Of a DNA stretch of 64,000 nucleotides, positions 35,323 through 48,430 are shown one piece after another. The notes beneath the pieces are model-generated. The model saw only the letters and a list, made by a program, of their open reading frames with translations. It was not told the origin of the DNA and made no database searches. The stretch lies in NCBI GenBank assembly GCA_965237835.1, contig OZ250160.1, forward strand, positions 18,371 through 82,370, read 5' to 3'. Position numbers and translations under genes: made by a program. Each line of letters begins with the position of its first letter. The first letter of the stretch is position 1. The stretch is from Candidatus Poribacteria bacterium. GTDB taxonomy: Bacteria > Poribacteria > WGA-4E > WGA-3G.

Positions 35323-35409
35323 AGTGTTTTTGCACAGTCCATCGCGCCGTTTACCACACAAATTCAAACACGTGAGTTTTCTGAATTAAAGCTGCTATCA
35401 GAGTTTTTA

Positions 35410-35818
35410 TTGACATCTCCCACACCTAAAGGAGTGGGATTCTTAGGTCTTATATCAGTCCTTAATGTTTCTGAATGCCTTGTTCCTGCTTCTGCATCCA
35501 CTGCTCCGTAGTTGAGTCTAACACGGACTCCACAGGCGTTTAGACTCTCCCAGTGTCCCCAGGCGAGTTATTAGTGAATGTGGTAGGGATGTTGTAGTAA
35601 CAACATATATTAGTTTTTCTCTACCACATTCTAATGTTTCGAGTGATTTCGCACCAGCACCACACACCTTATCACGGATGGGGACAGGACTCAACACAGG
35701 TAAGTGTTGAGGTGATAACCCTATCCAACGATGCTACATATAGTCCATACTATTTCGGTGCAAATGTCAAGCGTTTTTTGACCCACAGCTAAAGCAGTGG
35801 GATTGTTAGTTAATTCCC
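35410..35818 (-). mobile_element. Non-autonomous IS200/IS605 (TnpB-type) element, copy 1, 409 bp, no ORF
   Basis: LE hairpin CCCACTGCTTTAGCTGTGGG; RE hairpin ending GATGTCAA. Removing it restores TTT GAA|TAA, the host gene's stop. No target duplication. Confidence 0.85.
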
Positions 35819-38553: not shown

Positions 38554-38940
38554 GGGAATTATCTGACAATCCCACTGCTTTAGCCGTGGGTCAAAAAACT
38601 TATGACATTTGCACCAAAACATGTTAGACTATATGTAGCATCGTGGATAGGGTTTCCACCCCATACAACCTGTCCGGGTCCTATCCCTCACCTGTGGAAA
38701 GGTGTGTGATGCTGTGCGAAATCACTTAAAACATTAGAATGTGGTAGAGAAAAACTAACGTCCGTTGTTACTACAACGACCCTACCACATTCGCTAACAA
38801 CCTACCGTGGGATACACGGGAAGTTACGCCTGTGGAGTACAAATAAGACCTCATTCGGAGGCACGAGAGACGGAAGCAGGAATCACATAGGAGAGTTGTG
38901 TGCAAAAGAAGCACACGGCTTTAGCCGTAGTGAGTATCAC
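38554..38940 (+). mobile_element. Non-autonomous IS200/IS605 (TnpB-type) element, divergent copy, 387 bp
   Basis: Follows ATGAA, starts GGGAATTA, has the same LE hairpin and promoter, GCCTGTGGAG..GAAGCAGGAA omegaRNA motifs, ends GTATCAC. Confidence 0.8.
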
Positions 38941-39139
38941 ACGCTACTTATTATAGTATACATACATATTGGCACATTACGACATAGAATAATATCAAAC
39001 ACACTATTCTGTCTCCCCAATATCTACAGATACTATAATAGACACAGAGTTGTACGAATTTCGCTACAACAAATTGCATAAATCCAATAATAAACGTGTA
39101 AGGAAGAATACCCAAATAACACCAATAGGAGTATACACA

Positions 39140-47351: not shown

Positions 47352-47460
47352 CTTCAGAATTTATATGTGCATTTATCACTTTTCCCGCCAAGACCCCATG
47401 CTTTAGCTTGTGGGTCAAAAAACGCTGACTTTTATCCTTATTTGTGATATACTCTATATA

Positions 47461-47583
47461 ATGCCAAATTAACGGGATTTGTCCTATTTTCCGGACGGTA
47501 GGTGCGGTTTTGCGGTGTACTCACCCAAATGCGATCTGCATTCCTAACCGCACCGATAGATTGGAATCAAGTTAATTTGGTAT
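47461..47583. mobile_element. Family-A MITE, long variant (inverted near-copy of 5215-5339)
   Basis: Shares GTAGGTGCGGTTTTGCGGTGTACTCACCCAAATGCGATCTGCATTCCTAACCGCACC. Confidence 0.85.
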
Positions 47584-47622
47584 AACCCACTTAGTGGTAG
47601 GGGAAACCGTCACGCCTACGAC

Positions 47623-47700
47623 ACCTTGACATCTGAAACCAAACAAGAAGTCATCAGCAACACTAGGGAAACAATTGAAGGATACATTATTGATTTCTAA
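47623..47700 (+). pseudogene. Possible HicB-like antitoxin remnant
   Basis: SETKQEVISNTRETIEGYI resembles HicB GET.EEA..N.REAIE.Y. Confidence 0.3.
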
Positions 47701-47734
47701 TTGCTAATCAAAATTGGCAACGCAGGAGGAAGCC

Positions 47735-48430
47735 ATGAAAGTTTTGTTTTTTATAACCCTCGTTATCGGTTTGGTAATGCCTTGCACTCTTTGGGCGAAA
47801 AACCTGGCACTGGAATTAGATGGTGAAGGGAATTAACTAACAATCCCACTGCTTTAGCTGTGGGTCAAAAAACGCTTGACATTTGCACCGAAATAGTATA
47901 TACTATATGTGGCATCGTTGGACAGGGTTATCACCTCAACACTTACCTGTGTTGAGTCTTGTCCCCATCCGTGATAAGGTGTGTGGTGCTGGTGCGAAAT
48001 CACTCAAAACATTAGAATGTGGTAGAGAACACCTAATATATGTTGTTACTACAACATCCCTGCCACATTCACTAATAACTCGACTGGGGACACTGGGAGA
48101 GTCTAAACGCTTGTGGAGTCCGTGTTAGACTCAACTACGGAGCAGTGGATGCAGAAGCAGGAACAAGGCATTCAGAAACATTAAGGACTGATATAAGACC
48201 TAAGAATCCCACTCCTTTAGGTGTGGGAGATGTCAACCGAACCTAAACGCACACTACACTTTCGATGAAGGCAACGCCAAGGATAATACCAAAAACGGAA
48301 ACGATGGCAAAGATGGGTTGGAAAGTCGAATTATGTTGATGTCACAAAAGACCTAAACCTTGAGCCACTTTCTGTAGACCCGGAAGATAAGCTGACGACA
48401 ACGTGGGCATGGGTGAAACGGACCCGATAA
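47735..48430 (+). pseudogene. Disrupted secreted LamG-type protein with KLTTTW tail
   Basis: RBS plus MKVLFFITLV...ALELDGE before the element; PNLNAHYTFDEG...SVDPEDKLTTTWAWVKRTR after it, with an additional frameshift. Confidence 0.7.
47828..48236 (+). mobile_element. Non-autonomous IS200/IS605 (TnpB-type) element, copy 2, 409 bp
   Basis: Near-identical inverted copy of 35410-35818; follows GTGAA; internal TTGACA-17-TATACT at 47876-47904. Confidence 0.87.

Follow-up and report, generated by a model that had tools for sequence, protein, structure and literature searches.

Elements of the IS200/IS605 type that lack a protein gene but bear TnpB guide RNAs (omegaRNAs) have been published before (Meers et al. 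2023, PMC10055086): according to main-text passages of that paper, these palindrome-associated transposable elements (PATEs) contain no protein gene, have ends in common with TnpB-bearing elements, occur in many copies per genome, and specify a guide RNA presumed to be used by TnpB in trans. Related known RNAs are the sense overlapping transcripts (sotRNAs) of IS1341-type tnpB genes, as outlined in PMC4615843. The passages on TnpB omegaRNAs, or right-end RNAs (reRNAs), of IS605 and IS607 elements in bioRxiv 10.1101/2023.11.20.567912 depict a scaffold of consecutive stem-loops that ends at the right-end boundary, with a nexus stem-loop pairing with the scaffold 3′ end, a pseudoknot described there as general for TnpB omegaRNAs, and a guide taken from the flank; they also describe IStrons, which unite a group I intron and TnpB/omegaRNA in one element. 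Here we analyze a 64,000-nt stretch of the genome of a Candidatus Poribacteria bacterium, a sponge symbiont (contig OZ250160.1 of assembly GCA_965237835.1, positions 18,371 to 82,370; hereinafter the window), in which a 409-nt element at 47828..48236 (+) shares all of the above PATE features. From the PATEs of those passages it differs in three features, a near-consensus promoter within the element, a pseudoknotted leader of ~80 nt and a non-coding 5′ half of the scaffold, a comparison that passes no judgment on whether PATEs also carry a leader. A protein-less omegaRNA element is thus of a known kind, whereas the leader is provisionally new: the literature searched, which did not extend to supplements and subscription papers, contained no tnpB or omegaRNA transcript described as having a structured 5′ leader, and our searches found no literature on Poribacteria TnpB or on the IS605-orfB RNA motif.

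A blastn survey of the genome, a single contig of 5.9 Mb, recovered 23 near-full copies of the element in four subfamilies, namely nine of the 409-nt form (subfamily 1, 97–100% identity) and 14 in the three others (77–84% identity). Three of these are in the window, exactly where an initial annotation made from the sequence alone had placed them, and they align end to end: copy 1 (subfamily 1; 35410..35818, −), copy 2 (subfamily 4; 38554..38940, +; its leader helix B reads TTTCCAC/GTGGAAA) and copy 3, the element in question (subfamily 1). Every window copy sits 3′ of TGAA and begins GGGAATTA; copies 1 and 3 terminate in TCAA and copy 2 in TCAC. Throughout the genome, TGAA and an intact left end are seen in 22 of the 23 copies, with right ends of TCAA in nine, TCAC in 13 and one right end lost. 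There is no target-site duplication, again in agreement with the initial annotation, and the left and right flanks of the copies are unrelated. Copy 1 lies between GAA and the TAA stop of a host open reading frame (ORF), and its excision in silico restores ...GAA|TAA, as had been noted; copy 3 splits a small ORF beginning at 47735, with the TGAA target, presumed to be the transposon-associated motif, directly 5′ of its left end at 47824..47827 (+). Both ends carry subterminal imperfect hairpins without terminal inverted repeats: CCCACTGC-TTTA-GCTGTGGG on the left (47845..47864, +), read directly from the sequence, and CCCACTCC-TTTA-GGTGTGGG on the right (48208-48227), which with the terminal AGATGTCAA spans 48208..48236 (+) and is supported by covariation. 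Such ends, together with insertion 3′ of a short conserved motif in the absence of target duplication, are those of IS200/IS605 elements. As a side observation, a metatranscriptome contig from run X6 has the flanks of copy 3 (47825/48242) joined by 478 other letters; hence, another strain has a different insert at the TGAA site of copy 3.

The pseudoknotted leader occupies 47911..47990 (+), and its covariation was assessed on 29 distinct sequences from 11 genomes with the structure P1/A/B/C/D/E. The outer stem P1 (47911-16/47985-90) encloses helix A (47920-26/47958-64), the C hairpin (47935-56) and hairpin D (47966-69/47978-81), and the pseudoknot helix B pairs B5′ (47928-34) with B3′ (47971-77), all on the + strand. 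Adjoining it is hairpin E (GGTG-CGAAAT-CACT, 47991..48004, +), with a Y-GNRA-Y-like loop and a 5′ half, X′, that nearly repeats the 3′ strand of P1. Across the alignment 95.9% of the cells pair, as against 36–47% when the partners are slid by 1–3 columns, and 18 of the 36 pairs show double changes; none of 500 shuffles reached the observed values. The paired fractions are 95.4% for P1, 98.5% for A, 98.0% for B, 93.4% for C and 94.0% for D. In helix B four of the seven pairs are doubly changed, one of them occurring as UA, AU, CG and GC, and the helix is seen as at least eight different complementary 7-mers. Since B3′ constitutes the loop of hairpin D, the covarying pairs make up a three-way junction (P1, the A–C arm and D) closed by the outer stem P1, with the D loop docked by Watson–Crick pairing into the internal loop between A and C to form the pseudoknot. 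G-U pairs are frequent on the sense strand. The outer stem, helices A and B, their pseudoknot order and the lodging of B3 in a hairpin loop had been named in the initial annotation; the helices so named were all found and covary, and the further copies and significant covariation on which that proposal hung are at hand. The 5′ domain, which had gone unrecognised there, also has no counterpart in Rfam 15, with no match at the gathering score in the window and none at E ≤ 10 in 47780-48290, and six tnpB loci gave Rfam matches at chance level inside coding sequence only.

The ancestry of the element is apparent from about 20 further loci that have only its positions 1-57/60, i.e., the left end, in common with it. 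Four of the six such loci that were opened contain an ORF of ~360-390 codons, and the best parent locus codes for a protein of 358 aa with Pfam matches to OrfB_IS605, Cas12f1-like_TNB and HTH_OrfB_IS605. This TnpB-only parent is 96% identical to the element over positions 1-57, including the -35 hexamer, and has in common with it the RNA from GAGAGTCTAAACGCCTGTGGAG to the terminal TCAC (the last ~130 nt); it is a parent of the autonomous type with the same ends, as the initial annotation had envisaged. In contrast, element positions ~60-270 show no blastn similarity to the parent. Because of this, decayed tnpB as the source of the leader region was ruled out, there being neither similarity to the parent coding sequence nor a conserved ORF. 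The genome holds 22 full-length relatives of the parent TnpB, 21 of them without internal stops. With ends common to protein-coding relatives in the same genome, as in PATEs and miniature inverted-repeat transposable elements (MITEs), the element is a non-autonomous IS200/IS605-type element descended from TnpB-only (IS1341-like) elements. Outside the phylum, the closest TnpB relatives (39-41% identity, on plasmids) are mostly found behind genes for IS607-type serine transposases and in some cases behind IS605 tnpA; the Poribacteria elements, unlike these, have IS200/IS605-type hairpin ends. In all four plasmid TnpB loci that were fetched tnpA is directly upstream, and consequently there is no free 5′ untranslated region (UTR) to compare.

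The leader is succeeded by a nearly invariant segment, GGTGCGAAATCAC..AAACATTAG. For the scaffold, an RNAalifold consensus of 23 diverse copies predicts 25 pairs, 14 of which have compensatory changes, and these are distributed over four helices, each with such changes: the long internal-loop hairpin (48015..48070, +), a hairpin of 5 bp whose loop reads GGATA or GGRCA, a CCUG/CAGG helix formed at long range, and the hairpin of the right end. The second of these is the nexus hairpin, ACTGG-GGACA-CTGGG (48083..48097, +); the third appears as CUUG/CAGG in the omegaRNA core, CGCTTGTGGAG ... GAAGCAGGAA (48108..48163, +), where CG is replaced by AU in two sequences. The nexus loop is complementary to the bases that immediately precede the boundary of the element (TGTC at 48231-48234 in copy 3) and switches with them: GGATA loops accompany ...GTATCAC ends and GGRCA loops ...ATGTCAA/G ends in 15 of 19 distinct combinations, with at least four contiguous pairs. 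This switching with the right-end type argues that the element RNA is a full non-coding TnpB omegaRNA. As in the TnpB omegaRNAs of the preprint passages cited above, the scaffold comprises consecutive stem-loops, its nexus pairs with its 3′ end, and it ends at the right-end boundary with the flank as presumed guide; both the core and the remainder up to the TCAC/TCAA boundary, which directly adjoins the flank, are homologous to the 3′ region of the parent. It departs from them in the lack of overlap with a tnpB ORF, in its dedicated promoter and in the extra 5′ domain outside the scaffold. The parents have this nexus hairpin too, lying there across the tnpB stop codon, and just upstream of it the zinc-finger/RuvC-III coding region contains a stem, ATTGCAG/CTGCAAT, which covaries to AGTGCAG/CTGCACT in one parent locus (L103) and is partially matched in another (L123). 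We infer that the long hairpin of the element is a non-coding replacement of this coding stem, as would be expected for a protein-less derivative without tnpB. Overall, the region conserved in structure is ~330 nt long and consists of the ~80-nt leader, the short hairpin E and an omegaRNA scaffold free of coding sequence.

The initial annotation had described a pseudoknot RNA fused to a TnpB omegaRNA, a reading that is supported, but the leader is not peculiar to the protein-less element, comparable structures being present at the head of tnpB mRNAs. Inspection of 71 distinct 5′ UTRs of TnpB relatives revealed two types. In type 1, found in the close relatives of the parent, P1 encloses a classical H-type pseudoknot, while in type 2, found with TnpBs of 62-68% identity, the order is P1/A/B5′/C hairpin/A3′/D5′/B3′/D3′/P1, which is the architecture of the element's leader in unrelated sequence. 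Sixteen type-2 leaders were aligned; 91.4% of their cells pair and 18 of 32 pairs are doubly changed, with none of 500 shuffles reaching these values. As leaders of the same architecture head tnpB mRNAs, the pseudoknot is better understood as a leader module than as part of the guide RNA proper. In all leader types P1 begins right after the promoter, and in all of them its 3′ strand (X) has a second copy, X′, downstream, which is contiguous with X in type 2 and the element and ~17 nt further on in type 1. By a strict count, two separate sites fully complementary to the P1 5′ strand (P1-5′) are present in 15 of 24 type-1 and 10 of 16 type-2 leaders, as compared to 45/7150 and 21/4790 with shuffled 5′ strands and 5/1020 and 2/567 in other windows of the same leaders; this count replaced a lenient one that returned 25-48% positives in controls. 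The alternative P1-5′:X′ helix pairs at 89.1% in type 2, with four of seven pairs covarying, and at 96.5% in the element. Type-1 X′ contains an AGGAG Shine–Dalgarno sequence 7 nt before the ATG, and type-2 X′ ends 4-10 nt before the start codon, so that P1-5′:X′ pairing would be predicted to cover the tnpB ribosome site in the tnpB elements. To our knowledge, the duplicated closing strand has no known counterpart. The element may nevertheless be likened to the IStrons, as far as these are covered by the passages of bioRxiv 10.1101/2023.11.20.567912, in that a further structured RNA module stands on the left of an IS605/IS607-type element, and in alternative RNA pairings that would balance two outcomes; unlike an IStron module, the leader is only ~80 nt long, is not a group I intron (no Rfam match) and has no indicated role in splicing.

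Within the genus, blastn detected the leader domain in 10 of 24 other genomes; in three other families, none of 16 genomes had it. A covariance model built on the nested part of the fold yielded 37 matches in the genome, 25 of them strong and 12 weaker (31.7-52.6 bits). The latter constitute a third MITE lineage with different ends and a different omegaRNA, in which the leader architecture is the same and P1 is wholly different (AACTTGC/GCAAGTT). At the level of the order the model finds leaders in 70 of 151 genomes (family f1, 67/103; f2, 1/11; f3, 1/29; f4, 0/7), and at the level of the phylum in 64 of 99 genomes of f1 and 0 of 15 of f4-f9. An exact-motif scan of one genome per prokaryote species found 45 stretches, all in metagenome-assembled genomes of Poribacteria. 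The leader occurs on at least four different backbones, as defined by left and right ends or omegaRNA, and sister elements exist without it or without both it and the long hairpin; accordingly, the leader behaves as a module. An omegaRNA-like sequence, and never tnpB, follows the leader in 27 of the 28 loci examined; exceptions are L064, which ends at a contig end, and L074, which has a host ORF downstream.

The shorter sister elements are at G000:C1 1621650-1622200 (−), 2168200-2168800 (+), 87880-88400 (−) and 2890200-2890700 (+). In three of these the promoter is joined straight to the nexus hairpin, with neither leader nor long hairpin, and in one the left end is joined to the long hairpin without promoter or leader. 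In subfamily 2, ends of the subfamily-4 kind accompany a subfamily-1 leader. Together, the sister elements and subfamily 2 show modular, mosaic evolution.

An inward sigma-70-type promoter, TTGACA-17-TATACT (47876..47904, +), matches at 11 of 12 positions, in line with the initial annotation, and shares its -35 hexamer with the parental tnpB promoter. In 30 of the 35 leaders of the element's type that could be scored, the spacing from the -10 hexamer to the start of P1 is exactly 6 nt, and hence the 5′-terminal base is expected to be paired. No terminator-like site was found in 47700-48400, the right end included. From this and the omegaRNA architecture, the flank at 48237..48252 (+), which starts CCGAACCTAAA, is predicted to serve as guide for copy 3; the corresponding guides would start at 35409, reading downwards, for copy 1 (−) and at 38941 for copy 2 (+). 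About half of the sampled words are present in eleven RNA-labelled runs. A metatranscriptome check used four runs from four studies, all available as strandless assembled contigs. The element was covered in all four at 10-1000 times the depth of its flanks, and some contigs run past 48236 into several different flanks. The depth tracks copy number and conservation, with contigs ending at repeat boundaries, and run X3, which has no cover of the flanks, is not counted as evidence.

The anatomy of the element, the covariation of its RNA, its origin in TnpB-only elements and the fact that intact TnpB genes are available form the established ground on which its function may be considered. The explanation that we find best overall, and hold with somewhat more confidence than doubt, is a self-contained guide-RNA PATE/MITE with a pseudoknotted leader, whose RNA would be loaded in trans into TnpB and whose leader would protect its 5′ end. 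Transcription would start at 47911, the first base of P1, and proceed through the right end into the flank, and the flank thus read through would become the guide. The protein that loads this RNA might come from one of the genome's 21 open TnpB genes. By cutting TGAA-flanked empty sites, TnpB would then cause the element to be restored or retained after excision, an effect demonstrated for other IS200/IS605 elements in passages of PMC10055086. The leader might bury the 5′ end and thereby protect or insulate the transcript, and its most likely job, judging from the sequence comparisons, is 5′-end protection plus a register switch. Protection is favored because the architecture alone, and not the junction bases, is conserved and because P1 starts at +1. 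X/X′ would offer the second register, which might mask the ribosome site in the tnpB elements and compete with hairpin E in the protein-less element. Exonuclease-resistant RNAs (xrRNAs), like the leader, consist of a three-way junction plus a pseudoknot. With these RNAs and with the 5′ stabilisers of bacterial mRNAs, the leader would have in common that it is structured from +1 with no single-stranded 5′ end; it differs from the known bacterial stabilisers, which are simple hairpins, in its elaborateness.

Several observations weigh against this explanation. Only two matches to the Y1 transposase (PF01797) are found in the genome, the better one split, such that a functional copy is not evident, and the present-day mobility of the element is unproven. 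Four relatives were searched for an empty site, with repeats and weak matches to the flanks as the sole result. In the metatranscriptome contigs the depth over the left end, upstream of the promoter, equals that over the interior, and the cover could stem from DNA carry-over or from other strains; it is compatible with expression, the start, strand, 3′ end and level of the transcript being unreadable from contigs. The equivalence of the long hairpin and the parental coding stem rests on position and two covarying parents. The element's leader model detects two of the type-2 leaders tested, both only weakly (21.6 and 16.5 bits), and common descent of the leader types is plausible but not shown. 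Finally, a plain hairpin would suffice to protect a 5′ end, and the elaborate fold with its X/X′ duplication hints at something more specific than stabilisation. We tentatively suggest, while holding it well short of probable, that TnpB-family transposons have in this leader a cis-acting RNA module of a new class, a two-register cap that would protect the 5′ end and set the amount of TnpB or mature guide RNA, perhaps in response to TnpB or a cellular signal. If so, its spread by recombination onto at least four MITE backbones would reflect selection on guide-RNA dosage.

The main rival is a ligand- or protein-controlled regulatory switch (a riboswitch, or a sensor to which TnpB or another protein binds) that chooses between the pairing of P1-5′ with X and with X′, toggling TnpB translation in the tnpB elements and gating the folding or processing of the omegaRNA in the protein-less one. 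A duplication of X far above chance is what such a switch would call for, as are the covariation of X′ with P1-5′ in type-2 leaders, its compatibility in the MITE leader, and the placement of X′ on or just before the ribosome site. We nonetheless consider it improbable, if still the strongest of the competing accounts, as the unpaired junction bases vary between leader types, unlike known ligand pockets, no Rfam riboswitch matches, and other reasons, such as a tandem protein site, could keep X and X′ identical. Less probable again would be a ribozyme, self-cleaving or processing, with the task of trimming read-through transcripts or of releasing the omegaRNA 5′ end. HDV-like (hepatitis delta virus-like) ribozymes do such trimming at the 5′ end of some retrotransposon RNAs, and the order A5′-B5′-C-A3′-B3′ of the leader recalls their P1-P2-P3-P1′-P2′, with the near-invariance of the segment that follows the leader as a further point in favor. 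However, those ribozymes form a nested double pseudoknot (P1-P2-P3-P1′-P4-P2′) with a short P3 and a catalytic C, whereas the leader has B3′ enclosed by D, a C helix of 7-8 bp and an outer P1 around the whole fold, so that the HDV-like candidate was rejected on its fold as well as on the absence of any match to Rfam ribozyme families at E ≤ 10. Nor were invariant candidate catalytic bases common to the leader types found, and with the promoter setting +1 at P1 there is little upstream RNA to remove. We accordingly regard this possibility as unlikely.

Very unlikely, in our estimate, is an action of the fold on single-stranded DNA during transposition, for instance in TnpA recognition or as a pausing structure. 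IS200/IS605 elements do move as single top strands of the same sequence as the RNA, but the fold keeps a constant distance from the promoter, 6 nt downstream of the -10 hexamer, and not from the element end. Moreover, the frequency of G-U pairs on the sense strand and the overlap of the second register with the ribosome site in the tnpB elements suit an RNA, and the short sister elements X1621, X2168 and X88076 have multiplied despite lacking the leader. Least probable of all, and largely refuted, is the notion that the region encodes a small protein and that the structure is secondary. The initial annotation had found no ORF in any copy; strictly, copy 3 contains a mechanical 81-aa ORF with a TTG start (47883-48128), which is not a conserved gene, and many close copies keep a stop-free frame of 60-100 codons. 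Of 45 distinct variants, only 18 keep the frame open throughout the domain, seven have a stop within 30 nt of the anchor and 12 an in-frame ATG, while the start of the copy-3 ORF lies upstream of the predicted transcription start and substitutions are paired across helices rather than concentrated at third codon positions. A conserved small ORF was therefore rejected.

Protein-less TnpB guide-RNA elements are known, whereas how such RNAs are expressed and stabilised in the absence of a tnpB mRNA is not. The element would provide a compact natural solution comprising a promoter, a structured 5′ cap and a scaffold free of coding constraints, which is of direct interest for engineering stable omegaRNAs. 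Its leader is a strongly covarying fold absent from Rfam and present in two thirds of the searched genomes of family f1. Should the register switch prove regulatory, it would be, as far as the searched literature shows, the first described control element for TnpB expression.

Further observations concern individual loci. The third MITE lineage, which we term family Y, is found at G000:C1 5754517-5755090 (+), 4923957-4924430 (+), 541878-542330 (−) and about nine more places, none of them in the window. Its nested left-end hairpin is of another kind, its promoter matches the consensus and its pseudoknot leader has diverged, while its omega-like RNA is different and longer, with ...GGGTGSTATCAC at the end; its full-length tnpB parents measure ~1.45 kb (e.g., 742850-744330). 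Just upstream of copy 3, at window positions 47373-47455, a left end of the family-Y type is fused to a promoter-like stretch, followed by a short repeat (~47455-47593) that occurs in at least 12 places in the relative G003. The only good tnpA match of the genome, L171 (G000:C1 3080432-3083686, −), is broken by six tandem repeats of ~38 nt and a second insertion, and a tnpB-like ORF follows the split gene; further copies of the repeat unit lie dispersed in other places, such as upstream of the element at G000 1721350. In three species of genus g9 (L086, L087 and L088), the leader and an omega-like RNA are present at the same locus upstream of an OmpA-type lipoprotein gene, with a different hairpin in place of the right-end hairpin; this copy looks fixed rather than mobile and might possibly have been exapted. 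At L074, which is the same as L039 (G001; locus 743-1405, −, and upstream), a promoter and the leader precede a truncated long hairpin, and 95 nt further on comes an ORF of 221 aa that belongs to no obvious family, suggesting that the leader may here drive a host gene.

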